Assembly (NCBI GenBank): GCA_965214945.1
Contig: OZ244029.1
Coordinates: 125,256 to 189,255, forward strand
DNA: 64,000 bases
Source of the DNA: Acidimicrobiales bacterium
Lineage (GTDB): Bacteria; Actinomycetota; Acidimicrobiia; Acidimicrobiales; Aldehydirespiratoraceae
Direction: 5' to 3'
The notes beneath the pieces are model-generated. The model made no database searches. It worked only from the letters and a program-made list of their open reading frames with translations, and was not told where the DNA came from. Below are positions 6,387-53,573 of this stretch, one piece after another (position 1 is the stretch's first letter; each line of letters begins with the position of its first letter). The translations under genes and the position numbers were made by a program.

Positions 6387-6925
6387 GTGCCCGGACTCAG
6401 CGCCGACTGGGTGGCGGCCCGCTACGGCATCCCGGCCTCGGAGATCGCCAAGCTGGGCTCGGCCGAGAACCCGGCTCGGGCCTTCGCCTAAGGCGGCGCC
6501 GCCCCCGACACCGTCGTGGTTTTGGACGAGGCCTACGTGCACTATTCCGCCACGGCTGGCCACATCGGCCTGGCCGCCGAGCACGACGATCTCATCGTCT
6601 TGCGCACCTTCTTCAAGGCGTATGGCTTGGCGGGGCTGCGACTCGGCCACGGAAGGCAGGGACCGCCTGACTCGCCGTTTCGGCGAGCTGGAGCGGTTCA
6701 GGTTGATCCCGGGCAGCGGGTCCAACTTCGTGCTGGCGGAGATCCTGGACCCCGCCACCGACTCGACCAGGGTATTTGAGGGGTTGCTGGAGCGGGGGGG
6801 GGGGGGGGGTCATCGTCAAGGACGGCTCGTTGTCGTTCCGGGGCCTCGGGCGGCGCTACCTGCGCTGCGATGTCAGCCTCCCCAGCGCATGGACCAGCTG
6901 GTGGACGCCTTGGGCCGACCTGCCG
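6387..6925 (+). pseudogene. decayed class I/II (HisC-like) aminotransferase
   Basis: The N-terminal piece VPGLSADWVAARYGIPASEIAKLGSAENP ends at TAA 6489. The middle of the protein is missing. The sequence then reads [11 protein letters not shown]...[19 protein letters not shown] (PLP-Lys region), followed by a frameshift to [16 protein letters not shown]...VFEGLLERG, the G16 tract, VIVKDGS...RYLRCDV, and another shift to QRMDQLVDAL. Confidence 0.6.
6794..6809. repeat. homopolymeric G16 tract inside the aminotransferase pseudogene
   Basis: Counted directly as agc + 16 g + tcat. Confidence 0.95.
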
Positions 6926-7151
6926 TAGAGCCGGCCCGACCCGGATCCGAACTCGACTCGAGGCCTGCTGAAGCGGCGAGACTTCGGGTTTGGAGATCCG
7001 GCGACCGGGCGGGCGCGTCGGCGACATTGCGCGGATCATCGCCGAAGTGCTCACCAAGGCCGTCGAGCAGAACGCCCTCGGCGGACCTGTGGGCTGCCGC
7101 GGCCATGCGGTCGCCGCCGGCGCCGCCCCGGCGATAGACCGACCAGGCGGG

Positions 7152-7928: not shown

Positions 7929-8809
7929 GCCGGCCTCGCAGCCCGGTGGCGGTAACCGGGCATCAGCCGCTCCAGACCGCCCACGCAGTTGGTGAAGACC
8001 AAGCCCAGCACTCCGGCCCCGATGATCGCGCAGTACATCTTGGGGGGATCGGTCTGGGCCTGCTGAGCGTAGGCGAGGATGAGCCGGCCGATGCCGCCTC
8101 CGAGCCCGATCGATATCTCCCCAACGATCGACCCGATGATCGAAGCGGCGGCCGACAGCTTGAGCGCCGGCATCAGATAGGGCACTGCCGCCGGCAGCCG
8201 CACCTTCCACAGCGTGGACCACCAGCCCGCCGCGTACGACTGCATCAGCTCGATCGACTCAGGCGAAGGCGACTTCAGGCCTCGGATGCCGTTGACGGCC
8301 ACGGGGAAGAACGTCAGATAAGTGGCGATCAACGACACCGACATCCACGGCCTCCAGTCCACGATGTCGATGCGGTTGCCCCAGGTCACGATGATCGGGG
8401 CTAGCGCCAGCAATGGAATGGTCTGGGACAGGACGATGCCGGGCAGCATGCCCTGCTCGAGGAGTTTCGACCTCATCATCAGCACGGCCAAACCGATGCC
8501 GATCAGGGTGCCCAGGACGAAGCCGGCGAAAGAGATCCTAAGCGTGTACCAAGCGCCCAGCAGCACCGACTCGCCGACGGTGGTGTCGCTGCGCCGCTGC
8601 TGCGGTTCGAAGAACCGGGTGACGATATCCCACAGGGGAGGCAGGGTGACCTGATTCGTCTTGACGGGGAGGTCGCCGCCGATTAGCGGCCACTCGTCGC
8701 CGGTGGCGATGCCCATGCGGCGATAGCCCTCGTAGAGCGCGCAGAACAACGCGATGGCCACCGCCGCCGGCACCGCGCGCCCCAGCCCGGTCCGGATCCG
8801 ATGCAGCAT
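7925..8809 (-). CDS. ABC transporter permease (second membrane component)
   Basis: 294 aa, multi-TM, with EAA-like motif ELMQSYAAGWWSTLWKVRLPAAVPY. It is translationally coupled to the next permease. Confidence 0.85.
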   Translation of the reverse strand: MLHRIRTGLGRAVPAAVAIALFCALYEGYRRMGIATGDEWPLIGGDLPVKTNQVTLPPLWDIVTRFFEPQQRRSDTTVGESVLLGAWYTLRISFAGFVLGTLIGIGLAVLMMRSKLLEQGMLPGIVLSQTIPLLALAPIIVTWGNRIDIVDWRPWMSVSLIATYLTFFPVAVNGIRGLKSPSPESIELMQSYAAGWWSTLWKVRLPAAVPYLMPALKLSAAASIIGSIVGEISIGLGGGIGRLILAYAQQAQTDPPKMYCAIIGAGVLGLVFTNCVGGLERLMPGYRHRAARPA

Positions 8810-14149: not shown

Positions 14150-14210
14150 GAAGCGGGCGAAACGTGACGGCACGGTACCCTCACCAGCCGGGGTCCGCTG
14201 CGGCGGGCTG

Positions 14211-14295
14211 GGAGGGTTGCCAGAGCGGCCGAATGGGCACGCTTGGAAAGCGTGTGAGGCGAGAGCCTCCGTGGGTTCAAATCCCACACCCTCCG
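14211..14295 (+). tRNA. tRNA-Ser (anticodon GGA), copy 2 (identical)
   Basis: Same sequence as 4104-4188, shifted by 10107. Confidence 0.9.
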
Positions 14296-14308
14296 CCCCA
14301 CCGGTACC

Positions 14309-15583
14309 GTGCCCGCGATGAGACCGGAGCCGACGGGCGACCGCACCGTCGTAGCCATTGGTGACGACAGACGACAGAATTCTCTGAGGGTCATCGCCAC
14401 GCTGATCGGAGTGCTCGCGGGGCTGGCCGCCGTTCTGTGGCTGCTGGGACGCACGGGCGGCGATGGCCCTGCAGACGCCCCTGACGCGCCGCTGCCGATC
14501 GAAGATCCCGCCGCGGAGGCGTCGGGCCGCGGTTCCGACGCTGCAACACGCGCCCAGTCCGGGCCCGGGTCCGAGTCCGGCGCTACGGGTGGCGCTGTCC
14601 AGCCTGGCGAAGCAGGCTCCGCAAGCCGCTCCGACGCCCTAGGCGCACGGCTCGCCTACCTGACCGAGGGCGGTGTGGCGATCATGCGCTTGGCGGTTGT
14701 CACCGACGACGACGGGGCGCGTCTCGCGGTCGACGCCGTGGACCGCGTGCGGATCAAGGTGTCGGGCGCTGTGCTGCCCCTCAACGAGTATGCGCTTCTT
14801 ACCGACGGCAACCGCACTGTCGGCCTGTCTATGGGCGACAGTCGTGGCGACGGCCCGTTCACCGCTGTTGTCGTCGCCTCGGCGGCCCGCGTCGTACCCG
14901 ACAGCTCGCCGCTGGTCGAGTACTGGGTGATCGACCGCCGTGACGACCACAGCAAGGGTGTGCTGCTGGTGGCCTGGCATTTCTACGGATTCATGTCGGG
15001 GGACAGGCGGGTGCCGCCCGGGTCTGACCTGGTGGTCACAGGCGAGCCGGGAATACTGGTGGTGCCGCCCACCGGTAAAACCTTTCGCGCGGTGATCAGC
15101 GGCTTCGAGCCCGTGAGCGAGCACCGGGCGCTGGCAGCGGGCGGCGGTGTGCGCGTGGAGCAGCGCTGTGACGACCAACTCGTCTGCGAGGTGGTGGCGG
15201 TCGATTTGAGCGACGGCCGGGTGACAGTGCTGCCGGACGACTTCATCGCTGAACTCGGTGAGATATCGGTGTCGCCCGGAGGCCGCTGGCTGCTCAACGA
15301 CACCAGCCCGGCCTTGCTGTATGACCGGACGGAGGAGGAGCCGCGACAACTCCAAGTGGGCGGCTACGGCCGGGCCCAGTGGACACGCTGGCCGCTGCCG
15401 GAGGCGCACAGAGACCAAGCCGAGCCGCACTTCGGCGTGGCTGTCGGCTGGCTGACGACGGATCGGACGCCGTCGCTGGTTCTAGCCCGAGCCGACGCTG
15501 TCGGCGGACCCGAGGTGCTCGTTGTCGAGCTGTCCGGCCTCGACGCCGACCCCGTGCCGGGCTCGTCCTTCGTGCTGTGGTGA
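14309..15583 (+). CDS. hypothetical membrane-anchored extracytoplasmic protein
   Basis: N-terminal TM helix LRVIATLIGVLAGLAAVLWLL, then a Gly/Ser/Ala/Pro linker, then a beta-rich body of about 300 aa. No motif recognised. Confidence 0.5.
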   Translation: MPAMRPEPTGDRTVVAIGDDRRQNSLRVIATLIGVLAGLAAVLWLLGRTGGDGPADAPDAPLPIEDPAAEASGRGSDAATRAQSGPGSESGATGGAVQPGEAGSASRSDALGARLAYLTEGGVAIMRLAVVTDDDGARLAVDAVDRVRIKVSGAVLPLNEYALLTDGNRTVGLSMGDSRGDGPFTAVVVASAARVVPDSSPLVEYWVIDRRDDHSKGVLLVAWHFYGFMSGDRRVPPGSDLVVTGEPGILVVPPTGKTFRAVISGFEPVSEHRALAAGGGVRVEQRCDDQLVCEVVAVDLSDGRVTVLPDDFIAELGEISVSPGGRWLLNDTSPALLYDRTEEEPRQLQVGGYGRAQWTRWPLPEAHRDQAEPHFGVAVGWLTTDRTPSLVLARADAVGGPEVLVVELSGLDADPVPGSSFVLW

Positions 15584-15641
15584 GCCTGTCAGCCCCGCAG
15601 GCCCCTCACGGAGCCGGGACAGTGTCGGGGTCCCGACAGCG

Positions 15642-16514
15642 TCAGGCTGCGGCCAGGGCGGCAGCGCCGAAAGCGACGGAGAAGCGTACGCACCAAACCA
15701 CCACCGTGGAATAGTGGTTTAAGTCGAGGTCTCTGGGGATCTCGTAGTTCTGGTCGCCAATGTTGCCATGAAGGTCGCCGAGGTTCACGAAGTCGTCATC
15801 GAAGGCGCTTTCTGGAGCATCGGGCCCAGCTGAGGACAGATAGACATCGAGATCGGGGCCGTTGTCCGTCCTGAAGTGCTCAAACCGCAGGAAGCGCTGG
15901 CCTGTCCCGTCGCCGAGCACTGTGGCGCTGCCCGAAGTGGGGTGGCTCCGACTGCGGAAGCTGCCCGACGCCTCGACGGAGATTACCGGCTCAGACGGCA
16001 CAGTCGTGTCGGGCGCTTCCGTTGTGGGAGCAGCCGTCGGCGCAGGAGCCTCATCATCCGGCCCGGCGGTGGGAACAGCACCCTCATCCTCCACCGCGGC
16101 AGCGGTCGTCGGCGTGTCGGCTGTCCCGGTGTCGTCGACGGTCGCCTCGGCAGCTGTGTTGGATGCCTGCGTCGTTGGCGTCACGCCCTCGCCACCCTCA
16201 CCGTCTTCACCTTCGGACTCGGATTTAACAGTTGCGGGCACGGGCTGCGCAGCGCTGTCGTCGTCGCCTAGCTGGCTGTCGAACACCGGGAGCGCCTCGT
16301 CCACCACGTCATCGACAAACACCAGGTGAAACGCGAACACGGCGAAGAACAGCCACGCCCCGACAGCCCCCAGCACCGCAGCGACGGGCAGAACCCAGCC
16401 CCAGTTTCTTGCAATCCAGCTTTTTCTTGACCCGGCCACCGGGATCATCACACGGTTTTCGGCAACACGGTTTTCGGCCGGATAGCTCCGGTTTCTTGCA
16501 ATCCAGCCTTTCAT
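15642..16514 (-). CDS. DM13 domain-containing membrane-anchored protein
   Basis: The C-terminal segment GSATVLGDGTGQRFLRFEHFRTDNGPDLDVYLS...GDQNYEIP...YSTVVVWCVRFSVAFGAA matches the DM13 pattern. It has a TM helix and a Thr/Ala/Pro/Glu linker. The start is ambiguous (16514, 16448 or 16577) because the 5' end is duplicated. Confidence 0.65.
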   Translation of the reverse strand: MKGWIARNRSYPAENRVAENRVMIPVAGSRKSWIARNWGWVLPVAAVLGAVGAWLFFAVFAFHLVFVDDVVDEALPVFDSQLGDDDSAAQPVPATVKSESEGEDGEGGEGVTPTTQASNTAAEATVDDTGTADTPTTAAAVEDEGAVPTAGPDDEAPAPTAAPTTEAPDTTVPSEPVISVEASGSFRSRSHPTSGSATVLGDGTGQRFLRFEHFRTDNGPDLDVYLSSAGPDAPESAFDDDFVNLGDLHGNIGDQNYEIPRDLDLNHYSTVVVWCVRFSVAFGAAALAAA

Positions 16515-16663
16515 GACCCCCCAGCTTCCTTTTGCGGCAACGGCACAATAACGGACGGACCACGTGCCGCAGCACACCGCGAGTTGCGTTCGCGGCCTGT
16601 GCCGACGCGGCCAGCGTCCGGCGGTTCCCCGACGCAGCGCCGTCGGGCGGTAGCTTCGGCGAC

Positions 16664-17509
16664 ATGAGCGCGCACGCCGTGTGGGTTGACGGCCGGATGG
16701 CAGAGCCGGGCCGCGCCCATCTGCGGGCCGACGACCACGGCGTGATCGTCGGAGACGGCGTGTTCGAGACGCTTCTGGTGGTGAGAAGCCGGGGCCGCCC
16801 CGAGGCGTTCGCTATCCGCCGCCACCTTCAGCGGCTGAGGCGGTCGGCGGCCCTGATGCAGCTCGACTACCCGCTCACCGACGACTATCTACGCCGCGGC
16901 ATCGAAGCGTGCCTGAGCGCCGCTCCCGAAGCCGGGGTTGTACGCGTCACGGTGACCAGCGGCGGCGGGCCGCTCGGATCTGGGCGGGGCACCGGGCCGG
17001 GCTCGACGATCGTGATGGCCGGCAACTCGCCGCCGTCATATGAGCCGGGCGCATCGGTGGCCATGATGCACTTCCCGCGAAACGATCTCAGCGCGCTGGC
17101 CGGCGTCAAGACCACCTCGTACGCCGAGAACGTGCTGGCGCTGCGCATCGCCAGACAGCGGGGCGCCTCAGAGGCGATCTTCGGTGACACGAAGGGCCGA
17201 GTCAGCGAGGGAACGGGATCGAACATCTTCTGGACGGACAGCGCGGCGCTGCACACCCCCCCTCTCGACACCGGCTGTCTGGCCGGAGTCACCCGCGCGC
17301 TGCTGATGGAAATGCTCGATGTCACCGAGACGCATCTGCCCCTGGGTGAGCTGCCCCATGTGGAAGAGGCGTTCTTGGCATCGACCACTAGGTCAGTGCA
17401 ATCCATCGGCGCCGTCGACGGCAGGCCGCTGCCCGTGGTGGACGGGCCTCTGACGAAGCAGGCCGCGTCCGCTATGGCCGACCTGATCGCCACCGACATC
17501 GACCCTTGA
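16664..17509 (+). CDS. class IV aminotransferase (aminodeoxychorismate lyase / branched-chain type)
   Basis: Start at MSAHAVWVDG. Contains DHGVIVGDGVFETL, EGTGSNIFW and GVTRALL. Confidence 0.75.
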   Translation: MSAHAVWVDGRMAEPGRAHLRADDHGVIVGDGVFETLLVVRSRGRPEAFAIRRHLQRLRRSAALMQLDYPLTDDYLRRGIEACLSAAPEAGVVRVTVTSGGGPLGSGRGTGPGSTIVMAGNSPPSYEPGASVAMMHFPRNDLSALAGVKTTSYAENVLALRIARQRGASEAIFGDTKGRVSEGTGSNIFWTDSAALHTPPLDTGCLAGVTRALLMEMLDVTETHLPLGELPHVEEAFLASTTRSVQSIGAVDGRPLPVVDGPLTKQAASAMADLIATDIDP

Positions 17510-17635
17510 CACGCCGCGCCGCCGCCCAACCGCCCCGCCCGACCGTCCGCCCGCAGCTCCGCCTTGAATGACGACGAGTTGATGACGGAGGCTCTGGCCG
17601 TTGGGCTGGCCGTCCATGCCGAGGGCCAGCCGCCA

Positions 17636-18082
17636 ATGAATGACGATGAACTGATGACGGAGGCTCTGGCCGAGGCTCGGGCCGCGGCCGCGCAGGGGGA
17701 GGTGCCCGTCGGCGCTGTGGTGTGGCACGGCAGCCGGATCATCGCCCGCCGCCACAACGAGCGCGAGAGTTCGGGCGATCCCACCGCCCATGCTGAGATC
17801 CTGGCTCTGCGCGACGCGGCGGCGGCCCTCGGGTCTTGGCGGCTCGACGGCACGGTGGTGGCCGTGACGCTGGAACCGTGCCCCATGTGCGCGGGGGCAT
17901 TGCAGCAGGCAAGAGTGGAGTGCGTGCTGTTCGGCGCTACCGATCCCAAAGCCGGCGCACTCGGCTCTCTCTATAACTTGGGCGCCGACCCGAGGCTCAA
18001 CCACGAGTTCAAGGTGAAACCCGGCTTGCTCGCCGGAGAATGCGGCTCGCTATTGACCGACTTCTTCGCGTCTCGCCGTTGA
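17636..18082 (+). CDS. tadA: tRNA adenosine(34) deaminase
   Basis: Contains HAEILALR and PCPMCAGAL. The preferred start is ATG 17636. The ORF can extend in frame to TTG 17564 through a duplicated copy of the first 12 codons. Confidence 0.9.
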   Translation: MNDDELMTEALAEARAAAAQGEVPVGAVVWHGSRIIARRHNERESSGDPTAHAEILALRDAAAALGSWRLDGTVVAVTLEPCPMCAGALQQARVECVLFGATDPKAGALGSLYNLGADPRLNHEFKVKPGLLAGECGSLLTDFFASRR

Positions 18083-18191: not shown

Positions 18192-18278
18192 GGAGAGTTG
18201 CCAGAGCGGACGAATGGGGCGGCCTCGAAAGCCGTTGTGGCCCTCGGGTCACCATGGGTTCGAATCCCATACTCTCCG
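18192..18278 (+). tRNA. tRNA-Ser (anticodon CGA)
   Basis: Acceptor GGAGAGT pairs with ACTCTCC, the anticodon loop is CTCGAAA, there is a long variable arm, and the T-loop is GGTTCGAATCC. It lies directly downstream of tadA. Confidence 0.9.
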
Positions 18279-18314
18279 CTGTAGGAGCCGACCGAATATG
18301 AGAAGGAGTTTCAC

Positions 18315-30283: not shown

Positions 30284-30357
30284 GGGGCTGTAGCTCAGTT
30301 GGCCAGAGCACCTGCTTTGCAAGCAGGGGGTCGTCGGTTCGATTCCGATCAGCTCCA
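30284..30357 (+). tRNA. tRNA-Ala (anticodon UGC)
   Basis: Acceptor GGGGCTG pairs with CAGCTCC and includes the G3:U70 pair. The anticodon loop is TTTGCAA and the T-loop is GGTTCGATTCC. Confidence 0.9.
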
Positions 30358-30430
30358 CCCACTTCAGGATCTTCGCATGTCTGCCGTTTGGAGCCTCACC
30401 GAGTTTGCGAGGGGTGCCTAAGGAGCCGTC

Positions 30431-30904
30431 TCAGTTGATGGCGAGACTCGCCAGGATGCGGTTGGCCTCAGCCGTGAGGAGGCCGCGCAGCACGCGCGAT
30501 CCGATCACTGTGTAGAGGCAAAATGCACGGGGCCCCACCCGGAAGAAGCGCTGCAGACCGCACTGTCCCGCAATTCGCCGGATCAGCTGATCGGCGCTGA
30601 AGTCATCGGCGCGCAGCGGAACCGGGATCCCGGACGACGAGAAGAGCTGCCGGCTCGTGGAGGCCCGGTCGAACTCGATGAGAGCGATGAACACCCCGCC
30701 GCGCCCCATCGTCTCAACCGTCGATGGCCCGTAGTCGTCCCGGTCGGCCGGCAGCGCGAAATTGGCTGCGTGCAGCACCACCCTCGGCAACGATGAAGGC
30801 CGCAAGACGGGGTCGATAGAGGACGGGTCTTCCTGGACGTGCATCTCGGCCTCCCAGCCGTCCGGCACGCCGATGCTCACTCCGTGCGACGACAGCCGAT
30901 CCAC
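30431..30904 (-). CDS. hypothetical protein; last gene of the mau-like operon
   Basis: 157 aa with no signal peptide and no recognisable motif. It starts 1 nt after the upstream stop. Confidence 0.5.
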   Translation of the reverse strand: MDRLSSHGVSIGVPDGWEAEMHVQEDPSSIDPVLRPSSLPRVVLHAANFALPADRDDYGPSTVETMGRGGVFIALIEFDRASTSRQLFSSSGIPVPLRADDFSADQLIRRIAGQCGLQRFFRVGPRAFCLYTVIGSRVLRGLLTAEANRILASLAIN

Positions 30905-30905
30905 G

Positions 30906-31502
30906 TCACGAGCCCAGCAGAGTCAGAACCGCAGCCGCGCTCAGGGCAGCGGCCGCTGCGGCGCACCAGCGGCGGGCGCGGACGTCCAGCGCGTCGAGGC
31001 GGCGGTGCAGCCGCCTCAGGTCGTCGGGGGTGCGCACCCCTCTGCTGGCCGTGACGCTAAGTCCTCGCACGATGCCAAAGGCTGCGCCGATCGCCAGTCC
31101 GGCCAGCGTGTCGCTGGACAGCAGCGCAGCCAGCGCGAACAGCGGCACCAGAGCGGTGTTCACCACAGTCGCGAACGCCGCGCCGAGCTGAATACCGAAG
31201 CCGAGTCCGTACACCCACGACCGGAAGCCCGAGAGCCAGTCCTCGTTCACTTGGCGGCGACCCGGCAGACGCTGCCCGGTCAGCTCCCAGACCGCAGCAG
31301 CTGCCGCCGCTGCGGCGAGCGCTGCGATCCGATATGGCCGCTCGCCGGCAGCGCCTGTTGATCCAAGCAGCTCCCCGAGCACACCCAGGCCGGCGCCAAG
31401 CGCCGCTCCGCCGCAGGCGGCTCCGAGAGTGACCCAGATCACGGTTATCGGCCAGCGGTTTCGGCGAGCCCGCTCTCCGAGCGGGCTGATGCTGGTGAGC
31501 AT
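30906..31502 (-). CDS. hypothetical polytopic membrane protein (about 4 TM)
   Basis: 198 aa with Ala/Gly/Leu-rich TM segments. It lies in the operon with the MauD/MauE-like genes. No family recognised. Confidence 0.55.
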   Translation of the reverse strand: MLTSISPLGERARRNRWPITVIWVTLGAACGGAALGAGLGVLGELLGSTGAAGERPYRIAALAAAAAAAAVWELTGQRLPGRRQVNEDWLSGFRSWVYGLGFGIQLGAAFATVVNTALVPLFALAALLSSDTLAGLAIGAAFGIVRGLSVTASRGVRTPDDLRRLHRRLDALDVRARRWCAAAAAALSAAAVLTLLGS

Positions 31503-31590
31503 CGAGGTGCCTCAAGGAGACCACGCGGAGCGGGCACCCGCGGCGACCGCCGCAGCCACGCCGATGGCGATCACGGCCGTCACGGTCAGC

Positions 31591-32397
31591 TCACAGATCA
31601 GACGAGCCGGCCGCGCCGCCCGAAGAGATGTCCGACGAGCCGGCCACGGGCGCCGAGTCTTCATCGGAGACACCGTCGGGGTAGAGGCTCGGGTGGCCGG
31701 GACCGACGCCGGATGACCGCAGAGCTTCATCAGCGCGGCGCCCGCGGCGCCGGCTCGAAGCGCCGAATCGGCCCTTGCGCTTGTGCGCCGGCATAGCGCC
31801 GTCTGCGACCGCCTGGCCTAGCAGTCCGCGCATCTGCTCCCAGTCGGCGGCGGTCCCCGCTCCGATGACCGTGCTGGCGGCACCGTCAACGAGCACGAAG
31901 TATGGCGAGCCGGGAACGTCGTAGTCCTGCCAAGCGGCGCTCGACAGCACCGCTTTCACCCCGGGCGGGACGAGCGCGGCCAGCGCCGACTCGGAATCGT
32001 GGGCCGGGTCCTGCCCGACGATCACCAGCCGGGTGCCGGGCACGGGCATCGCCAAGTCGGGCGAGGCGAACGCCTCCCAGAAACTGCGGCATGTGCGGCA
32101 CCCCGACGACAGAAAAGCCAGCAGAGTCACGCGGCCCGCTCCGATGACGCTCACCTTGGCAGGCCCTCCGCCGGGCCGAGCGCCGACGATGTCACGCGCC
32201 TTTCGGCCGGCTGCAGCCGGCTCAGACCCTCGGAGGTTGTCGCGCTCTGCGCCGTATGCCGCCGTCTCGCTATCGAGGCCGGCGCCGAGCCGGTGCAGCG
32301 CACGCAGGATCTCAGCGTGGGTTCTGAGCAAGCCGAACACCAGCACCGCCAGCACGCCGACGGCTACAGCCAGTACTGCGACGGCGACGGCTATCAC
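31591..32397 (-). CDS. membrane-anchored thioredoxin-fold protein with CxxC (MauD/TlpA-like)
   Basis: N-terminal TM helix IAVAVAVLAVAVGVLAVLVFGLL and a Trx motif LLAFLSSGCRTCRSFW. The GTG start overlaps the upstream stop as GTGA at 32394-32397. Confidence 0.7.
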   Translation of the reverse strand: MIAVAVAVLAVAVGVLAVLVFGLLRTHAEILRALHRLGAGLDSETAAYGAERDNLRGSEPAAAGRKARDIVGARPGGGPAKVSVIGAGRVTLLAFLSSGCRTCRSFWEAFASPDLAMPVPGTRLVIVGQDPAHDSESALAALVPPGVKAVLSSAAWQDYDVPGSPYFVLVDGAASTVIGAGTAADWEQMRGLLGQAVADGAMPAHKRKGRFGASSRRRGRRADEALRSSGVGPGHPSLYPDGVSDEDSAPVAGSSDISSGGAAGSSDL

Positions 32398-33599
32398 GTC
32401 GGCGTGTGCCGTTCGGGCCCGGGCCGTGGCGTCGTGTGGCGGATGCCGGCCGCGGGCCGCCGGGTCAGGTGGTAGCGATGCATCATGTGCGCCGCCTGCC
32501 CGCGGCTCACCGTTTGGTTCGCCCAGGAACTCACCGAGGACGACAGCCGAACGATGCCGTTTGACATCGCCCAGTGCAGGGCGGTCTGTTGCGTTCCGTG
32601 CTCGGTGATGTCGCCTCGGCGCGGGTGTGTTAGCACCGGCGGCGACCCCGCGAGCCGATACAGCAAGACAACCGCGTGCGCTTGAGTCAGTGCTGACTGA
32701 GGTTGGAACCTGCGGTTGGGCGGACGTGCGGCGATGCCCTGCTCGGCCATCCAGTCCACAGCTCTGGCATGGTCCGACCCGTCCGGCACATCGCTGAAGT
32801 AACCGGAACTCGCCGGTCGGGGCCTGCCCTCATAGCGCCAAACGAAGCTCGCGAACTGGCCGCGTCCGATCGGCTCGTCCGGCCCGAACAGGTCGTCCGT
32901 TAGGCCCTTCGTTATGCCCTCTGCGGTCATCCAGTCCACCGACTCGGCGTAGAAGGCTCTGGGAGGCACGTCGGTGAACCCCGTGTGCAGGCAGCGGCGG
33001 TCGTGCAGGCGCGTTGATGGGCTTCGCAACACCGGAGCGGGCTGGCATTCGGGATCCCACTGCCAGGGCGGCACGCACGTGACCACCCGGCATCTAACCG
33101 CGCCCACGCAAATGTCCTGGTTGCACTGGCCGTAGCGGAACCTGGAGCAGTCCACCTTGCGGGAGTCGCAGCCGTGGGGGCATTCGCACTTGGCTTTGGT
33201 GCACGACTTGGAGCACATTCCCTGAGAGGTGCACGCGCAGCCGGGATCGCATTCGAGGTTGCAGTCCAGGTAGTAGCGCGGGCGCGGCTCGTCGATCGAA
33301 CAGAACTTCGAGTCGTCCACCTTCCACCAGCCGGCCACGACAGTTCCGGGCGGGCAGGTGTTCTCCCCGGTGAGCGTGCAGCAGAACTCGGTCCAGTCGT
33401 CGCAGCACAGCGAGGAGCGATCGCACCGAATCCCTCGGCAGAGGCGTATTGCGGCCTCAGCAGTGATGGGCCGAACCGCGAACGCGACCGGTGCGAAGGC
33501 CATCGCCGTGGCCGTGATCGCGGAGGTGCGAAGAAACCCGCGGCGCGAGGCGTGACGGTCGACGAGGCGTGATAGCCGTGCGACGAGGCGGCGGCTCAC
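32394..33599 (-). CDS. Tat-exported Cys-rich protein (methylamine dehydrogenase light-chain-like domain) with three C-terminal SLH repeats
   Basis: The chosen GTG start at 33597-33599 overlaps the MauE-like stop as GTGA. The Tat signal is HASRRGFLRTSAITATAMAFAPVAFA. About 24 Cys occur in roughly 150 aa, including CCTLTGENTCPPGTVVAGWW (compare MauA NCPPGT...SW). The SLH repeats are FTDVPPRAFYAESVDWMTAEGITKG...F.P, FSDVPDGSDHARAVDWMAEQGIA, and a degenerate third. Confidence 0.65.
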   Translation of the reverse strand: MSRRLVARLSRLVDRHASRRGFLRTSAITATAMAFAPVAFAVRPITAEAAIRLCRGIRCDRSSLCCDDWTEFCCTLTGENTCPPGTVVAGWWKVDDSKFCSIDEPRPRYYLDCNLECDPGCACTSQGMCSKSCTKAKCECPHGCDSRKVDCSRFRYGQCNQDICVGAVRCRVVTCVPPWQWDPECQPAPVLRSPSTRLHDRRCLHTGFTDVPPRAFYAESVDWMTAEGITKGLTDDLFGPDEPIGRGQFASFVWRYEGRPRPASSGYFSDVPDGSDHARAVDWMAEQGIAARPPNRRFQPQSALTQAHAVVLLYRLAGSPPVLTHPRRGDITEHGTQQTALHWAMSNGIVRLSSSVSSWANQTVSRGQAAHMMHRYHLTRRPAAGIRHTTPRPGPERHTPT

Positions 33600-34312
33600 C
33601 CGTGTTTCCCGGCAGGTTGAAGCGGGGCTGCGAGGTGCCGCATCGAGCCCGGTGCCGCATCGAACACGGCGACTTGAGAACCGGGGGCCGAGCGCGCGCG
33701 CAGCGCCTCGGGCAGAGCCGTGAACGCCACGAAGATGAGCCCCGCCAGCACCAAAGCAGCCAGCGCCAGCGCCACGGCGGTCACAGGTTGGGTACTGCCG
33801 ACGGCCGTGACGACCTCGGCCGGTGACTTGCCGGTTCCGGTCGCTGCGGCCAGCGACACTGCGGCGCAGCAGACGTTTCCCACGATGTGAATGCGCGACG
33901 GAGGTGTGTCCGCAAGGCCGAAACATCCGCAAGACTCAGCACCGGCCTGCAATGAGCGCGCCACCACGGCAGCGAAGCACAGATAGAGCGCTCCGACCGC
34001 TGCCGACACGAGGCCTCCCTCAGCTATGGCGCCGACGCCGACGATCACCTCAGAGCAACCCAGTGCCCGCACCGGGCCGGTGATGAATGAGGTACCCGCA
34101 CCTTCGGCCTTGCGGCGGCCTCCGCGCGGGTCGAGCCGATGCGTCAGCGCGCCCAGAAGACGGGCAGTCGACAGCGGCCGCGCCAGCTTCGCCGCGCCAG
34201 CGGCGATCAGCAGCAAAGCGGCTGCCCCGTGAAGCGACACGACAAGTTCCACGGACGGCGATGGTAATGTCGGCAGCGCCCCACGCGAAGCGGGCAGCCG
34301 CAGGCGAGCCAA
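33596..34312 (-). CDS. MauE/DoxX-like membrane protein
   Basis: Polytopic, with the MauE-type motif SCGCFG between TM helices. The TTG start at 34312 is uncertain, and a downstream GTG at VELVV is possible. Confidence 0.65.
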   Translation of the reverse strand: MARLRLPASRGALPTLPSPSVELVVSLHGAAALLLIAAGAAKLARPLSTARLLGALTHRLDPRGGRRKAEGAGTSFITGPVRALGCSEVIVGVGAIAEGGLVSAAVGALYLCFAAVVARSLQAGAESCGCFGLADTPPSRIHIVGNVCCAAVSLAAATGTGKSPAEVVTAVGSTQPVTAVALALAALVLAGLIFVAFTALPEALRARSAPGSQVAVFDAAPGSMRHLAAPLQPAGKHG

Positions 34313-34318
34313 TACCGC

Positions 34319-34356
34319 GTCACTATGCAGTCAGTCGGCCGTCACTATGCAGTCAG
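34319..34356. repeat. 16-nt duplication gtcactatgcagtcag, spacer tcggcc, gtcactatgcagtcag; the second copy holds the stop codon of the truncated PIN gene
   Basis: Copies are at 34319-34334 and 34341-34356. The stop is cta at 34345-34347. Confidence 0.9.
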
Positions 34357-34527
34357 CTGGCGAACCGCTTTCGCGAATTCGGGAACACCTGACTTGTTAC
34401 GGGATAACTCCTTCAAAATATCATCTGACCAAAGTGCACGGTAGAGGCCAAGTTCAGCGAGACGAAGAAGGGAGTCACGCAGAATTGCCGGGTATAGAAC
34501 ACATGTGTCAAGAAGGACGGCGAACAC
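34345..34527 (-). pseudogene. PIN-domain toxin, N-terminal ~60 aa only (truncated)
   Basis: [41 protein letters not shown] matches the N-terminal third of PIN_3-type toxins, with the first acidic residue in LLDT. The remaining catalytic residues are absent. Confidence 0.5.
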
Positions 34528-34539
34528 CGTTCGGCCTGT

Positions 34540-34842
34540 TCAGCGGGTTAGCTTAGGAGATGCCGTCTTGTGATACATCCCGCTTTGTTCGGCGATCTCA
34601 ACCATTCTCGCCAAAGATGCTCGACGCCGAGCAGAAATCCGTTGGCCAAGATCAATAACATCAGCCAAACGGATCTTGCGGTGGCGTTCCGACCGTTCGA
34701 AGTCAATCTCATCTGAATCCACCAGACTTACGAGCGAGGAACGACTGATTCCCAGAAAGTCGGCTGCTTGTTGTGTGGTGAGAAGTGTCTCCTGCGTAGA
34801 TTCACTTGGCGGAGCCTCACGTTCAAGCGTTGATGAACTCAT
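34540..34842 (-). CDS. excisionase/MerR-like helix-turn-helix DNA-binding protein (putative antitoxin)
   Basis: LLTTQQAADFLGISRSSLVSLV is an HTH motif. The gene lies directly upstream of the PIN fragment in a visibly AT-richer stretch. Confidence 0.65.
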   Translation of the reverse strand: MSSSTLEREAPPSESTQETLLTTQQAADFLGISRSSLVSLVDSDEIDFERSERHRKIRLADVIDLGQRISARRRASLARMVEIAEQSGMYHKTASPKLTR

Positions 34843-40452: not shown

Positions 40453-41958
40453 ATGATCCGCCCGGTCGCCCTGGCACTCGGCGTTGCGGTCGCCGTGCTT
40501 ATCGGGTACACGGTGATGTCGCCGCCCGGTGACGAATGGGTGTCCCCGGTCGTCACCACCACGACCACGACGACTGCCGCACCTACGACCACCACAACGA
40601 CAACGACTACGACCACCGTCGCGCCTTTTGAGGGATGGGTCGACCCGGTGTCTTCGGGCCGGCCCTGGGGGAGCGTCGCAGGGTTGTTGACGTTCCGCGG
40701 CAACCCCACTCGCACCTACTACGGACGCGGGCCGGTGCCCGCTGATCCGAGCATCGTGTGGCGTTTCCCAGAAGGTGCGGCCATGTGCTCGCACTCCTCG
40801 TTGGGGTCCGATGTCCGCGAGTGGTGCGGCTCAGGCTGGACCGGGCAGCCTGCGGTCTTCGAGCGCGACGGCAAGACCTGGGCGGTGGTCGGCGCCTTCA
40901 GCCGCAACCTTCATTTCCTCGACGCCGACACCGGAGAGCGGCTGCTGCCAGACTTCGAGACCGGCGACATTATCAAGGGCTCGGTGACCATCGACCCCGA
41001 TGGATATCCGCTGGCGTACTTCGGCAGCCGCGACGACAAGTACCGGGTGGTTTCCTTCGACGGCGACGCGCCCGCGGAGCTGTGGGCGCTGAACGCCAAC
41101 GACGTGAGCCCTGTGCGCTGGAACAACGACTGGGACGGCGCCGGCCTGGTGCTTGACGACTACCTGCTGGTGGGGGGAGAGAACTCGCAGTTCCACATCG
41201 CGAAGCTCAACCGCAGCTACAGCGACGACGGACGGGTTGCGGTCGACCCGCGGCTCGTGTTCAACGCGCCCGGCTGGGACGAAGAGCTGATCACCGCGGT
41301 CGGAGGGAATGTGTCCATCGAGAACTCGGTGGCCGTGAGCGGCAACGTCGCCTACTTCGCCAACTCCGGCGGCCTGGTGCAGGGTTGGGACATCACCGGG
41401 CTGGCCGATGGCAAGCAACCCGAGCGTGTGTTCCGCTTCTGGACTGGCGACGACACCGACGCCACGCTGGTGATCGACGCCGAGGGGATGATCTACGCCG
41501 CTGTTGAGTACGAACGCGGCACTGCTAGGTCGCACGAAGTGGGACAGATCGTCAAGCTCGATCCCGGCAGGCCCGACGACCCGATGGTGTGGGGCGTGGC
41601 GGCGCGCGGCGCCTTGAACGCCTCGGGTGTGTGGGCCACGCCAGCGCTGCACCGCGATCTGCTGATCGTTCCCACCAACCAGGGCGACGCTTTGGGCATC
41701 GACACCTCCACCGGCGACGTGCGCTGGACTGTGGATCTGGGTCATTCGACCTGGTCGAGCCCGGCGGTCGTCGACGATGTCTGGATCCAGGCCGACTGCG
41801 GGGGATTGCTGCGCGCCTTCGACGTGAGCGACACGACTCGGGTGCCGCCGGAGCTGTGGCGGATCGACCTGGGCGCGTGCATCGAGTCCACTCCGGCTGT
41901 GTGGGACGGGCTGGTGACGGTGGGCACCAAAGGCGGCTGGATTTACGGGATCCGCTGA
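40453..41958 (+). CDS. membrane-anchored PQQ-like/BamB-like beta-propeller repeat protein
   Basis: N-terminal TM helix, a poly-Thr linker (TTTTTTTAAPTTTTTTTTTTT), and repeated W/GG propeller blades (WSSPAVVDD, ESTPAVWDG). Confidence 0.65.
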   Translation: MIRPVALALGVAVAVLIGYTVMSPPGDEWVSPVVTTTTTTTAAPTTTTTTTTTTTVAPFEGWVDPVSSGRPWGSVAGLLTFRGNPTRTYYGRGPVPADPSIVWRFPEGAAMCSHSSLGSDVREWCGSGWTGQPAVFERDGKTWAVVGAFSRNLHFLDADTGERLLPDFETGDIIKGSVTIDPDGYPLAYFGSRDDKYRVVSFDGDAPAELWALNANDVSPVRWNNDWDGAGLVLDDYLLVGGENSQFHIAKLNRSYSDDGRVAVDPRLVFNAPGWDEELITAVGGNVSIENSVAVSGNVAYFANSGGLVQGWDITGLADGKQPERVFRFWTGDDTDATLVIDAEGMIYAAVEYERGTARSHEVGQIVKLDPGRPDDPMVWGVAARGALNASGVWATPALHRDLLIVPTNQGDALGIDTSTGDVRWTVDLGHSTWSSPAVVDDVWIQADCGGLLRAFDVSDTTRVPPELWRIDLGACIESTPAVWDGLVTVGTKGGWIYGIR

Positions 41959-42059: not shown

Positions 42060-43529
42060 TTAGCGGTTTGCGGTGTCTTCGGTCGCGCCGCCCGGCGCGC
42101 GGCGATGCCAGATCGTGCCGGCTGGTGTGTCTTCCACAATCGCGCCCAGTGCGGTCAGCTGGTCGCGGATGGCGTCGGCGACTGCCCAGTCCCGGGCCTC
42201 GCGGGCCTTCTGTCGGCGTTCCACAAGCTGCTCGATGACGCTGTCGTCGCCTCGTGCGGCGCCGGCTTCGATGCCCAGTACTCCAGCTAGGCCGATAGCG
42301 GTCGCTGCCAGCGGGCCGGCCTCGTCAGCGCCGGCGTCGAGGGCCGCATTGGCCCGGCGCACGGTGTCGAACACCACTGCGGTCGCTGCGGGCGTGCCCA
42401 GGTCGTCGTCCATGGCTTCCTGAAAGGCCCGCACCTCAGCGGCCCCTGCCCCCCCGGCCACGCGGCCTCGGCCGGATACACCAACAGGCTCTTCGCCATA
42501 AGGCGAAACCTGGGCGAAGCCGCTCAGGGCGGCACCAGCGGCCGCCGCACGGCGATGTAGCGCGTCCAGCCGGCTCACCGCCGCTCTCGCCGAGCCCAAA
42601 GCGCGCGGCGCGACCTCCATCGTCTTTCGGTAGTGCGACCTCAGCACCAGCAGCCGCAAAGCCCGGCCGTTGTCGGGGTGGGCTTCGAGCAGCTCGGAGA
42701 TCGTCAAGAAATTACCGATCGACTTGGACATCTTGTCGCCGGCGACGTTGAGCATGGCGTTGTGCAGCCAATGGCCGGCGAACGACCGCCCCGCGGCCAG
42801 CGCCTCAGCTCGCTCGTTGGTGTGGTGCGGGAACACCAGATCGTCGCCGCCGCCGTGCAGATCAAACCCATCGCCGAGCAGCCCGAGGCTCATCGCCGCG
42901 CACTCGATGTGCCAGCCGGGGCGCCCTGGGCCCCAAGGCGACGCCCATGCAGGCTCGCCCGGTTTGGCTGTCTTCCACAACGCGAAGTCGAGCGGGTCTT
43001 CCTTAGCCTCGTCGACCTCCACGCGGCTGCCCGCAGAGGCGCGCAAATCTTCCAGGCCGCGGTGCACGAGATCGGTGTAGCCGGGTACTTCGCGCACCCT
43101 CAAGTACACGCCAGCCTCGGTGGTGTAGGCACCGCCCGCAGCCGCGATCACCTCCGTGAGCGCCACCATCTCGTTCACCCATTCGGTGGCGCGGGGCCGC
43201 TCATGGGGGGCGAGCACGCCGAGCGCGTCCATCGCTTCGGTGTAAACCACCTCGAACTCGGCGGCCACCTCCGGCTCGCTGCGGCCCTCGCGCCGTGCCC
43301 GTTCGATGATCTTGTCGTCGATGTCGGTGATGTTGGCGACATGGCGGACCGCCAGGCCCCGCCACTGCAGGTAGCGCCGCAGCACGTCGTAGGTGAGCGC
43401 CGAGCGGGCGTGCCCGAGATGCGGGACGTCGTAGACGGTGGGGCCGCATACGTATATCGACACCTCGCCCTTGCACCGCAGGCGCAGAGGCCGCACCCGG
43501 CCGGTGAGCGTGTCGTGCAGGCAGATCAC
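42060..43529 (-). CDS. cysS: cysteine--tRNA ligase
   Basis: HIGH motif (PHLGHARS), KMSKS, and 489 aa with a C-terminal anticodon-binding/DALR-type region. Confidence 0.9.
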   Translation of the reverse strand: MICLHDTLTGRVRPLRLRCKGEVSIYVCGPTVYDVPHLGHARSALTYDVLRRYLQWRGLAVRHVANITDIDDKIIERARREGRSEPEVAAEFEVVYTEAMDALGVLAPHERPRATEWVNEMVALTEVIAAAGGAYTTEAGVYLRVREVPGYTDLVHRGLEDLRASAGSRVEVDEAKEDPLDFALWKTAKPGEPAWASPWGPGRPGWHIECAAMSLGLLGDGFDLHGGGDDLVFPHHTNERAEALAAGRSFAGHWLHNAMLNVAGDKMSKSIGNFLTISELLEAHPDNGRALRLLVLRSHYRKTMEVAPRALGSARAAVSRLDALHRRAAAAGAALSGFAQVSPYGEEPVGVSGRGRVAGGAGAAEVRAFQEAMDDDLGTPAATAVVFDTVRRANAALDAGADEAGPLAATAIGLAGVLGIEAGAARGDDSVIEQLVERRQKAREARDWAVADAIRDQLTALGAIVEDTPAGTIWHRRAPGGATEDTANR

Positions 43530-43562: not shown

Positions 43563-44819
43563 TCAGGCGTGCTGCGGCCGCGGCACGGACACGCCGCACA
43601 GCTCGCACAGCTCGGCCAAAACCGACGGCGCGGACCCGGCTCGGTTGCCCGCGGCGAGCACCGCCTCGGCGAACTCTGCCAGCACAGCCCTGGCTCGGGG
43701 GGCGTCGAGGTCGTCATCTAGCGCGTCGCGCAGCCTTTGAGCGAACGGTGCTGGGTCAACGTCGCCGTCTCGGTCGCGCAGCGCGGTCCTCACGCCTTCG
43801 CCTACACCGGCGCCGGCTCGGTCACCCGGCGTGCTGCCGTGGGCGACGGCCTCGCAGAGCGTGTCCAGCAGCTCGGCGCCGTCGTTGAGGTCGTCGTCGT
43901 TCCATTCCCAGTCGGCTCGGTAATGGCGGCCCATGAGCGCCAGCCGGATCGCGGCCGGGTCGGCCCGCTTGGCCAGCTCGCTGACGAACACCAGATTGCC
44001 CCTGGACTTCGACATCTTCTCGCCCTCGTAGGCCACCATGCCGCAGTGCATCCAATGCTTCACGAATGGCTCACCGGTTGCGGCCTCCGACTGGGCCAGC
44101 TCGCACTCGTGATGCGGGAACACCAGGTCGCTGCCGCCGCCGTGGATGTCGATGCCCGATCCGAGGAGCCCCAGCGACATGGCACTGCATTCGATGTGCC
44201 AGCCGGGCCGTCCCGGTCCGAACGGCGAGTTCCACACCGGCTCGTCGGCTTTCGACGGCTGCCACAACACGAAGTCGAGCGGGTTGTGCTGGCGGGGGTC
44301 GTCGGGGGTTCCGCCCCTCTCGGCTGCCAGGGCCCGCATCTCCTGCTCGTCGAGACCGCCCAGTCTCCCGAACTCCGGCCAGGTGGACACATCGAACCAG
44401 GTGGTGCCGTCGCGGCTGTAGGCGTGGCCTCCGGCGACAAGCTGCTCGATGAGGGTGACCATCTCGTCAGTCCAGTCGGTGGCCCTAGGCTCGGCGGCCG
44501 GCGGGCGAGTGTTGAGCGCGTCCATGTCGTCGTGGAACCGAGCGGTCTCCGACGCGGCGAGCTCCAGGAAGTCGACGCCCAGCTCGCGGGCTTTGGGCAG
44601 GATCGAGTCGTCCACGTCGGTGATGTTGCGCACCAGCCTCACTGTGTGGCCCAGGTCTTCCAGCCGCCGGATTAGCAGGTCGTATGCCAGGTACGTGTGC
44701 GCATGCCCGAGATGTGTGCTGTCATAAGGTGTGATTCCACACACATACATGCGCACTTCTCGCCCTTCGGCGGGCAGAAAGTCAACCGCTCGCCGCGAGG
44801 CGGTGTCGTAGAGGCGCAC
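43563..44819 (-). CDS. mshC: L-cysteine:1D-myo-inositol 2-amino-2-deoxy-alpha-D-glucopyranoside ligase (mycothiol ligase)
   Basis: CysRS paralogue of 418 aa with THLGHAH, KMSKS and NITDVDDSI. It has no tRNA anticodon-binding extension, and its size is typical of MshC. Confidence 0.75.
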   Translation of the reverse strand: MRLYDTASRRAVDFLPAEGREVRMYVCGITPYDSTHLGHAHTYLAYDLLIRRLEDLGHTVRLVRNITDVDDSILPKARELGVDFLELAASETARFHDDMDALNTRPPAAEPRATDWTDEMVTLIEQLVAGGHAYSRDGTTWFDVSTWPEFGRLGGLDEQEMRALAAERGGTPDDPRQHNPLDFVLWQPSKADEPVWNSPFGPGRPGWHIECSAMSLGLLGSGIDIHGGGSDLVFPHHECELAQSEAATGEPFVKHWMHCGMVAYEGEKMSKSRGNLVFVSELAKRADPAAIRLALMGRHYRADWEWNDDDLNDGAELLDTLCEAVAHGSTPGDRAGAGVGEGVRTALRDRDGDVDPAPFAQRLRDALDDDLDAPRARAVLAEFAEAVLAAGNRAGSAPSVLAELCELCGVSVPRPQHA

Positions 44820-52229: not shown

Positions 52230-53573
52230 TCAGGAAGAGACGGTGAGGTATGACTCCAGGGAGTCGTCGAGGGCTTCCTCCCACGGAGTGTGATGAACTG
52301 GCGCCAGAGTGCCAGTCAGCGGTGAGGTGTGGCCGTGGTCGCGGTAGCCAATGATCGAGTACTTCTTGTGCTTCTTCCAGTCTTTGAACATCTTGTTGAC
52401 CAGCGGCGTGTTGAAGTCGGGATAGTCGGTCTGGTCGACGAGATCCTGTGTGTAGTCGCCCTGGAAGTCGATGGCCTCATAATCATCCGCAACCTCGGCC
52501 TCAGCGGCCTCAAGATCGGCGATCCAGCGGGCCTGTTCGTCGGCGTCGGGCAGCTTGATGCGCCCGAGTATCACGTCGCGGGCGTACCACGCCTGGGCGT
52601 CGAACATGTTGAACGTGTACCACTGGTCTTGCATCCCCAGGTACAGCACTCGGTTGTTGGGCTGGAACACCACCCCCCGGTACAGCATGGCGGTGGCCAG
52701 GCAGTTGGAGGTCACGAGCCGCAGCTCGTCGTCCATGAACGGGAAGTGGTGTTTGTAGCCGGTGCAGGAGATGATCGCGTCGACCTCGGCGGACGTGCCG
52801 TCGGCGAAGTGCACGGTGCGGCCGTCGACCTTGGTGAGGATCGGCTTCTCGGTGATGCCCTCGGGCCAGTCGAAGCCCATTGGGCCGCTGCGCGACGTGC
52901 AGATCACGGAGCGTGCGCCGTACTTCCAGCACTGCGACGCGATGTCCTCAGCGGAGTAGCTGGAGCCGATCACGAGCACGTCTGAGCCCGTGAACTGCAC
53001 AGCGTCGCGGAAGTCATGAGCGTGTATCAGCGTGCCGCCGAAGGTCTCATAACCGGGGTAGTGCGGCATGTTCGGAGTGGAGAAATGGCCGGAGGCCACC
53101 ACCACCCAGTCGAACGTCTCGCTGACGGTGGTGTCTGCGCCGTGATCGTGCGCGGCGACTGTGAAGGTCTCCGTCTCCGGCGAGTAGCTCACCCGGCGTA
53201 CCGCGTGGTTGAAGCGGATGAAGTCACGGATGCCTGAACGCTCGGCCCGGCCTGCGATGTAGTCGTAGAGCACCTCCCGCGGTGGGAACGAGGCGATCGG
53301 CTTGCCGAAGTGCTCCTCGAAACCGTAATCGGCGAATTCCAGGCACTCTTTGGGTCCGTTCGACCAGAGATAGCGGTACATGCTGCCGTGGCAGACCTCG
53401 CCGTTGCCGTCGAGGCCGGTGCGCCATGTGTAGTTCCACAGCCCGCCCCAGTTGCTTTGCTTCTCGAAGCAAACGAGCTCCACGCCATCTGCGGCGCCCG
53501 TGGTGTCGCTGGCAAAAGCGTGAAGCGCCGACAAGCCGCAAGGCCCGGCGCCGATGATCGCTACCCGTGTCAT
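52230..53573 (-). CDS. tmm: flavin-containing monooxygenase, trimethylamine monooxygenase-like
   Basis: GAGPCG (FAD), FMO motif [11 protein letters not shown] (FxGxxxHxxxF/Y), and GSSYSAED (NADPH). The length of 447 aa is typical of bacterial Tmm. Confidence 0.7.

Follow-up and report, generated by a model that had tools for sequence, protein, structure and literature searches.

A conserved mau-like gene cassette of Acidimicrobiia encoding a cysteine-rich protein with wall-binding tails and a predicted MauF-like selenoprotein

The window analysed in this study, a stretch of 64,000 nucleotides (nt) from an Acidimicrobiales bacterium (assembly GCA_965214945.1, contig OZ244029.1, positions 125,256 to 189,255), carries at positions 30,431 to 34,312 five genes, designated g1 to g5, which represent one conserved cassette related to the mau cluster of methylamine dehydrogenase (MADH). 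The coordinates of the genes and of the features within them are listed in Table 1. Five packed minus-strand genes with two GTGA overlaps and a 1-nt gap had been reported in a preliminary description of this DNA, and all of them were found again: direct reading of the sequence placed the overlaps between g1 and g2 at 33599-33596 and between g2 and g3 at 32397-32394, and the single nucleotide 30905 separates g4 from g5. The spacer between g3 and g4 measures 7 nt and not 88, because the g4 frame reaches upstream to the GTG at 31583, and the start of g1 may lie downstream of the TTG at 34312. The CGCFG motif of the first product and the SRRGFL signal, the 24 cysteine (Cys) residues and the S-layer homology (SLH) repeats of the 401-aa second product are likewise present. 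The co-arrangement of the five genes exceeds chance by far.

Table 1. Genes and sequence features of the cassette; positions refer to the window and all features lie on the minus strand
Feature	Position (strand)	Description
g1	33596..34312 (-)	238 aa; MauE-like polytopic membrane protein, SCGCFG motif
g2	32394..33599 (-)	401 aa; leader, Cys-rich domain and SLH tail
g2 residues 1-49	33453..33599 (-)	long MauA-type twin-arginine leader
g2 residues 50-205	32985..33452 (-)	Cys-rich, distantly MauA-like domain
g2 residues 206-401 and stop codon	32394..32984 (-)	three SLH repeats and C-terminal tail; putative cell-wall anchor
g3	31591..32397 (-)	268 aa; MauD-like, anchored by a transmembrane segment, thioredoxin fold
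g4 (revised)	30906..31583 (-)	225 aa with TGA read-through; 198 aa from the start at 31502 in the open reading frame list
Predicted selenocysteine codon of g4	31512..31514 (-)	in-frame TGA; TGA/Cys alternation, conservation on both sides
SECIS-like element	31467..31503 (-)	hairpin 1 at 31503-31488; hairpin 2 at 31487-31467 with 9-bp stem and GGA loop at 31478-31476
g5	30431..30904 (-)	157 aa

The survey of gene neighbourhoods was based on the window and 80 fetched loci (L001-L080; 81 sources), whose six-frame translations were searched with hidden Markov models (HMMs) and, besides, by tblastn; the additional loci L084 and L085 were read through Pfam-annotated gene calls. A pattern scan for the Cys-rich g2 recovered the cassette in at least 598 coding stretches of species genomes, nearly all of them Acidimicrobiia. 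In the HMM searches, g1 was present in 78/81 sources, g3 and g5 in 74/81 each, and g4 in 57/81; the genes are co-conserved. Loci without g3 or g5 all end at a contig edge, with the exception of L038. The prevailing gene order is g1-g2-g3-g4-g5, with g5 placed ahead of g4 in one clade, and the same five genes also occur in a divergent clade (P0074, P0075). For the Cys-rich domain of g2, a word-indexed search returned 78 homologues, nearly all from metagenome-assembled genomes of Acidimicrobiales, and an exhaustive HMMER search with a profile of the mature domain only returned 474 representative clusters (50% identity) at E ≤ 0.001, the domain starting close to residue 50 in nearly all of these clusters. 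Locus L038 carries a lone g2 Cys-rich domain at 8001-8591, with none of g1, g3, g4 and g5 found within 8 kb; this copy may be a paralogue that depends on a cassette elsewhere in that genome.

Each cassette family was compared by hhalign with each Mau protein of a reference set of fetched canonical mau clusters (mauF-B-E-D-A-C-J-G-L-M-N). The mau-like character proposed for the operon was corroborated for g1, which aligned as a family with canonical MauE (Prob 95, E 3.8e-8), and for g3, which aligned with MauD over 166 columns (Prob 97, E 8.5e-11) including the transmembrane segment, GLLR, CxxC and the cis-Pro region. The suggested check of g1 against the Pfam MauE profile (PF07291) gave a divided result: the window copy reached 23.9 bits and stayed under the cut-off of 27, whereas orthologues pass it (50.6 bits in L054; 8.7e-13 in P0075). 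Motif scans found the CGC intact in 64/64 copies of g1 and the CxxC intact in 73/73 copies of g3. The N-terminal transmembrane segment and the CxxC motif (CRTC) previously ascribed to the third gene were confirmed, and its MauD-like nature was supported; the product furthermore carries a conserved C-terminal PGHPSLY motif, and MauD matched g3 by tblastn in 18 loci. Neither Pfam nor NCBIfam contained a model matching g3, and TIGR02661 misses it, yet gives 372.9 bits on true MauD. Since this model fails while the family alignment with MauD matches, g3 is classed as a distant MauD homologue and not as an equivalog.

By analogy, g1 is probably a quinone-linked, DsbB-like enzyme of disulfide formation: in E. 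coli, MauE can take the place of DsbB by means of a CXC loop in the periplasm, according to a preprint (10.64898/2026.03.05.709764), where MauA is also given as present in just ~10% of the MauE-bearing species. A folding at the cytoplasmic face had been considered, as crude hydropathy and positive-inside rules placed the CGC loop of MauE, the MauD domain and the selenocysteine loop of MauF in the cytoplasm; such a topology would have accounted for the Tat (twin-arginine translocation) signal. This option was dropped, because the dsbB complementation and the periplasmic position of the CXC loop, as given in the same preprint, indicate that the hydropathy rule is unreliable here.

The fourth gene, previously regarded as a 4-TM (transmembrane) protein without motifs, had to be reinterpreted, as its frame extends via an in-frame TGA and its product is a MauF homologue as judged by profile comparison, a polytopic membrane protein with a predicted WSP-U-G motif. 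The hhalign comparison of the g4 family with MauF gave Prob 97.7 (E 1.5e-12), rising to Prob 99.1 (E 5.1e-19, 171 columns) when the read-through extension was included, and MauF matched g4 by tblastn in 37 loci, with E-values as low as 2e-14. In g4, the initial ~70 residues of MauF have no counterpart. Neither g4 nor canonical MauF is matched by any model of Pfam or NCBIfam. The frame runs from the GTG at 31583 through the TGA, giving the product ...RSAWSP-(TGA)-GTSMLTSISPLGER. Among the 57 motif-bearing sources, 46 carry TGA at this position and 11 carry TGC or TGT for Cys; TGA was also found in g4 of L084 and L085. The recoded residue aligns with the Cys of TWSPCG in MauF (canonical TWSPCGYSS), and the upstream RS(T/A)WSP is kept in frame in 57/57 sources. 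A scan of the CGC motif of MauE, the CxxC motif of MauD and the CPPG motif of g2 revealed no selenocysteine (Sec) at any of them.

Downstream of the TGA, RNAalifold returned a structure identical to the one named beforehand, consisting of two hairpins 3' of the TGA. Pairing is possible in 98.6% of the hairpin cells, compared with 33-48% for slid partners; compensatory changes occur at three hairpin pairs, and the observed covariation score was reached by 0/500 shuffles. Hairpin 2 folds in 42/46 Sec-type sources and in 1/11 Cys-type sources. It has a GGN loop with both G invariant and a stem of 7-9 bp, is located 33 nt past the UGA and has a folding energy of -16.6 kcal/mol alone. For the bacterial selenocysteine insertion sequence (SECIS), an apical loop of 3-9 nt with G in its two initial positions, a stem of 4-16 bp, a distance of 16-37 nt after the UGA and a minimum free energy of ≤ -7.5 kcal/mol have been given (PMC13188914), and hairpin 2 lies within all of these limits. 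None of the SECIS families in Rfam matches the g4 hairpins, which says little, because the Rfam models cover particular SECIS families. In L054, a selD-selA-selB-tRNA-SeC set (3771-7882) directly precedes the cassette, and in L085, which belongs to the divergent clade, selD-tRNA-SeC-selA-selB (14186-17989) lies 1.2 kb downstream of it. As complete sel sets thus adjoin the cassette in two lineages distant from each other, a principal selenoprotein of these organisms may be the MauF-like protein.

The public gene calls inspected start g4 at the ATG 31502, after the TGA, and thus give a truncated product. Accordingly, the TGA might be read as an ordinary stop, with the 23 codons upstream being a mini-ORF or untranslated, and the missing Rfam match and the missing sel genes in the window would agree with such a reading; we consider it highly improbable in view of the in-frame RS(T/A)WSP, the alternation of TGA with Cys codons on the MauF Cys, the confinement of the covarying hairpins to TGA-type loci, and the sel operons with tRNA-SeC in L054 and L085. 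Neither a MauF-like family nor the WSPUG motif is among the 119 prokaryotic selenoprotein families catalogued in 2026 (PMC13188914), and g4 probably represents a new selenoprotein family.

The leader of g2 is composed of a helix preceding the twin-arginine (RR) motif, the sequence SRRGFL, a hydrophobic region and an A-x-A cleavage site, and it scored 19.3 with the twin-arginine model TIGR01409 (cut-off 16.7). Exactly 24 Cys lie within residues 50-208, the motifs GWW, PRYY.DC and FRYGQC are invariant in the Cys-rich domain, and g2 carries the stretch CCTLTGENTCPPGTVVAGWW, the one likened to the region around the tryptophan tryptophylquinone (TTQ) tryptophan of light chains. The AlphaFold2 (AF2) model of the domain reached a predicted local distance difference test score (pLDDT) of 86, with the core above 90. 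The Cys count of the mature domain is even (18, 20, 22, 24 or 26) in 69/74 members, and variable Cys positions of the family are gained or lost jointly (r up to 0.94). Owing to these even counts and this covariation, the data fit full pairing of the g2 cysteines as predicted disulfides, ~12 in number. The SLH repeats were recognized by PF00395 (2.8e-17; 62.9 bits, cut-off 20.8), and the C-terminal tails of the family vary, being SLH, CWB2, LGFP with or without DUF4214, ricin, or none. The presence of several unrelated wall-binding modules on one N-terminal domain supports the prediction that this domain is displayed on the cell wall. The tethering to the wall envisaged for the single protein of the window hence appears as a theme of the whole family.

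Alignment of the g2 family with 30 MauA homologues (hhalign) gave Prob 96.7 and E 4.5e-10 from the leader through the CPPGT motif, and most of this score comes from the leader. Leader against leader resulted in Prob 97 (E 2.9e-11). Among 14 Tat leaders tested, the decoys having been entered by hand, MauA leaders alone align before the RR motif, from residue 3. In tblastn searches, divergent MauA matched several g2 from the leader through C..C.DG..CC..G..CPPG..W..DG.S..Y.DC at ~30% identity. The TTQ residues Trp57 and Trp108 were located by counting along the mature Paracoccus chain, which also placed the two active-site aspartates at Asp32 and Asp76. Trp57 corresponds to W92 of g2, which is invariant and part of the GWW motif, Asp76 to the invariant D112, and Asp32 to the mostly conserved D67. 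The segment NNDIIW108CFG of MauA corresponds to CNQxIxCxG in the g2 family, where the Trp108 position varies and, in the window, is deleted, the alignment being of low confidence there.

Several results count against this relationship. PF02975, the light-chain family, gave no match at E ≤ 1 with the window g2 and 37 family members; the family profile found no MADH among PDB sequences at E ≤ 10; and Foldseek returned no PDB match at E ≤ 0.001 for the AF2 model of g2. Mature domain against mature domain, hhalign yielded a marginal Prob of 6.7 (P 0.005), a score reached by 1/120 column-shuffled controls. The leader likeness is furthermore partly generic to Tat leaders, as a manually entered NosZ leader equals some MauA scores, although over the RR motif and the hydrophobic region only. 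However, four among the top eight weak Foldseek matches are TTQ light chains (1mda_L, 2agw_D, 3sle_C and 2agl_D; TM-score 0.30-0.36, not significant), the top light-chain match having E 1.9 and a TM-score of 0.30. The earlier assignment of a MauA-like module was thus upheld by profile-profile comparison and tblastn, but not by PF02975, the PDB profile search or Foldseek. On these comparisons, the leader and the N-terminal mature region of g2 are assessed as homologous to MauA, and g2 is assigned as a remote MauA homologue outside the Pfam-defined light-chain family. A quinone of the TTQ type, as had been suggested for the module, is unlikely in g2, because the second TTQ tryptophan, Trp108, has no conserved counterpart and MauG was not found in the window or beside the cassette. 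The mature domain is most likely a non-TTQ binding or redox module, since g2 retains residues equivalent to Asp32, Trp57 and Asp76 but none equivalent to Trp108.

The fifth gene had been described as free of recognizable motifs, which holds in so far as g5 and five of its orthologues gave no match in Pfam or NCBIfam; the family is nevertheless conserved, with 144 homologues, all unnamed and none with a Pfam match. Its AF2 model (pLDDT 93.7; no signal peptide) had no Foldseek neighbour in PDB at E ≤ 0.001. Weak matches to PsbP/Mog1-like proteins (EagT6, LpqN, MTC28, PsbP) and START-like folds, with TM-scores up to 0.39, serve as a lead only. Compared with every canonical Mau protein by hhalign, g5 gave no match (Prob ≤ 1.0, E ≥ 0.054). 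A role as chaperone or accessory protein is our guess.

The lack of MauB and MauG noted in the preliminary description was verified for the 64-kb window and for the surroundings of the cassette in 83 loci. Searches by tblastn with MauB, MauG, MauJ, MauL, MauM and MauN gave no match across the window and the cassette surroundings (±8-10 kb) of 80 loci, and none of these proteins was found in the Pfam-annotated gene calls of L084 and L085. At 40453-41958, 6 kb from the cassette, the window encodes a 501-aa protein with weak matches to PQQ/BamB-type beta-propellers. This gene was rejected as a stand-in for MauB, having no tblastn similarity to MauB and lying beside the cassette in 0/80 loci.

Taken together, the cassette is likely to be a self-contained system for secretion and oxidative folding that arose from the half of the mau cluster serving the small subunit. 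It would therefore represent the repurposed MauA-maturation half of that cluster, in line with MauE being common without MauA and with the known orphan mauE/mauD genes. In the proposed mechanism, the g2 precursor would be exported via its MauA-type leader, with g5, which has no signal peptide, possibly acting as a cytoplasmic accessory protein or chaperone. The CGC loop of the MauE-like g1 would pass electrons to quinone in a DsbB-like manner and would keep the membrane-anchored, MauD-like g3 oxidised, and g3 in turn would introduce ~12 disulfides into g2. The lone Sec or Cys of the MauF-like g4 could be a highly reactive nucleophile, either for the shuffling or proof-reading of incorrect disulfides or for a relay of redox equivalents. 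Finally, the SLH repeats would hold the folded g2 knot on the wall.

Further points weigh against this interpretation. No selenocysteine machinery (sel genes) was found within the 64-kb window. In 16 loci with sufficient flank, g4 is missing within ±8 kb, and because these loci had room for it, g4 may be dispensable and not an obligatory part of the cassette. The roles of g4 and g5 in the mechanism are ones that we only infer, and selenium incorporation, disulfides and activity are predictions from sequence at this stage. In addition, the favoured scheme leaves unexplained why a protein with 12 predicted extracytoplasmic disulfides should be exported by Tat.

Other explanations were also weighed. 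The MauA-like domain could be a single-subunit redox protein displayed on the wall, in which the invariant GWW/Asp site gives rise to a non-TTQ cofactor, Trp-derived or Cys-cross-linked, formed without MauG and with the Sec of the MauF-like protein directly involved; we regard this as unlikely. It is improbable that g2 represents a Tat-exported metalloprotein, with cysteines binding Fe-S or other metal centres built in the cytoplasm and with the MauE-, MauD- and MauF-like proteins serving another purpose. Tat usually exports folded, cofactor-loaded proteins, so cytoplasmic assembly of a cofactor would account for the Tat signal, and the twin-arginine leader is here combined with an extreme Cys density. 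However, the even Cys numbers and the joint gain and loss of variable Cys point to pairing, MauA, to which g2 is related, is knotted by disulfides, the DsbB-like oxidase and the partner with a thioredoxin fold are linked in every case, and neither a motif nor a Pfam match of the ferredoxin type was found.

The orphan mauE/mauD genes that decRiPPter detected in Streptomyces beside precursors with ≥8 Cys (PMC7794033), together with the ricin-type lectin tails of some g2 members, would suit a secreted Cys-rich toxin, bacteriocin or product resembling peptides synthesized ribosomally and modified post-translationally (RiPPs), equipped with its own folding genes. This is hardly to be expected of a well-folded core of ~155 aa without leader/core peptide architecture, and most tails (SLH, CWB2, LGFP) anchor to the producer's own wall; moreover, the cassette is near-universal in the class and lies in housekeeping surroundings with no immunity or transporter genes, so that we judge the reading very unlikely. 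A split classical amine dehydrogenase, with g2 as true TTQ light chain and MauB and MauG encoded elsewhere in the genome, would agree with the leader, the CPPGT..W motif and the Asp32/Trp57/Asp76 counterparts of g2, with its MauE, MauD and MauF neighbours and with a flavin-containing monooxygenase (FMO)-like gene 20 kb off, but it is extremely unlikely given that MauB and MauG were found neither in the 64-kb window nor beside the cassette in 83 loci, and given the poorly aligned Trp108 position that is variable in the family and deleted in the window, the 18-26 Cys compared with 12 in MauA, the fusion to wall-binding modules and a PF02975 threshold passed by 0/37 members.

Regarding the surroundings of the cassette, the FMO-like gene at 52230-53573 is probably the methylated-amine module for which a link to the cassette had been considered. 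The link received no support: no evidence ties the FMO-like gene to the cassette, and the genes flanking the window cassette are common only to its closest relatives (L003-L010). Directly upstream of the g1 start, two tandem 22-nt units (CGTCACTATGCAGTCAG..GGC, 91% identical) are located at 34318-34361. This repeat may serve as an operator or promoter; an exact-match search for the 16-nt core of the unit found it in none of the 85 fetched loci. The cassette is immediately preceded, on its own strand, by a small excisionase-like HTH_17 gene (34540-34842), which was present in 0/80 related loci. Past the cassette, a tRNA-Ala(TGC) gene is encoded on the opposite strand at 30284-30359, 71 nt from the g5 stop; in the syntenic loci L003, L005, L006, L007, L008 and L010, tRNA-Ala(TGC) is located ~0.9-1.3 kb past the end of the g5 match. 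The window also contains two adjacent paralogues of the class-I cysteinyl-tRNA-synthetase type (42060-43529 and 43563-44819), one of which has neither the DALR nor the anticodon-binding domain, a composition to be expected of an enzyme similar to mycothiol ligase (MshC). Three tRNA-Ser genes were found within 15 kb (4104-4190, 14211-14297 and 18192-18279), two of them with the same GGA anticodon.

We know of no biochemical role assigned to MauF, and a literature search found no paper on its function. The use of predicted Sec in place of a conserved Cys in most Acidimicrobiia marks this MauF residue as a catalytic redox centre, and the function of MauF therefore becomes directly testable. We regard the cassette as a previously undescribed version of the system for mau maturation, in which MauE, MauD and MauF are suggested to form a folding machine for disulfide-knotted proteins of the MauA fold, independent of methylamine metabolism. 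With its 474 clusters at 50% identity, g2 constitutes a large family of uncharacterised surface proteins within a bacterial class that is widespread but little studied. If true, the reading with a non-TTQ cofactor would add a new class of quinoproteins or cross-linked cofactors and the first biochemical role for MauF. The reading as folding machine widens the view of MauE as a general DsbB-like enzyme put forward in the preprint (10.64898/2026.03.05.709764).

With the canonical cluster encoding MADH in Methylobacterium and Paracoccus (mauFBEDACJGLMN), the cassette shares homologues of MauF, MauE and MauD and a remote MauA with its unusually long Tat leader, whereas the heavy chain MauB, the TTQ-forming MauG and MauL, amicyanin, MauJ, MauM and MauN are missing. 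In mau mutants, the small subunit depends on mauF, mauE and mauD for its accumulation. The order in the cassette is E-A-D-F and differs from the canonical F-B-E-D-A; furthermore, the cassette adds g5, and its MauF is a predicted selenoprotein in most lineages. In contrast to MauA, the core of g2 is larger, with 18-26 Cys instead of 12, has no counterpart of Trp108 and bears wall anchors.

Like MauE in general, as described in the preprint (10.64898/2026.03.05.709764), g1 has the CGCFG motif and a thioredoxin-fold partner but no MADH, ~90% of MauE species being without MauA. In the cassette, by contrast, g1 belongs to an operon of fixed composition, together with a substrate-like protein of its own, a MauF-like predicted selenoprotein and g5; the abstract, results and discussion of the preprint make no mention of MauF, selenocysteine or a substrate family of the g2 type. 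The Streptomyces clusters found by decRiPPter (PMC7794033) also combine orphan mauE, with or without mauD, with a Cys-rich product in Actinomycetota without the rest of mau. Their products are short peptides with ≥8 Cys, whereas the g2 family comprises proteins of 200-1100 aa with a MauA-type leader, a domain of ~155 aa and wall anchors; for the Streptomyces clusters, neither MauF nor Sec nor g5 was described. Finally, g4 resembles catalogued bacterial selenoproteins (PMC13188914) in that one Sec replaces a conserved Cys in a redox-associated protein, Cys and Sec orthologues coexist, and the SECIS-like element follows closely 3' of the UGA, in agreement with the consensus model. It differs from the 119 catalogued families in that the predicted Sec is placed in a polytopic membrane protein, within a WSPUG motif.

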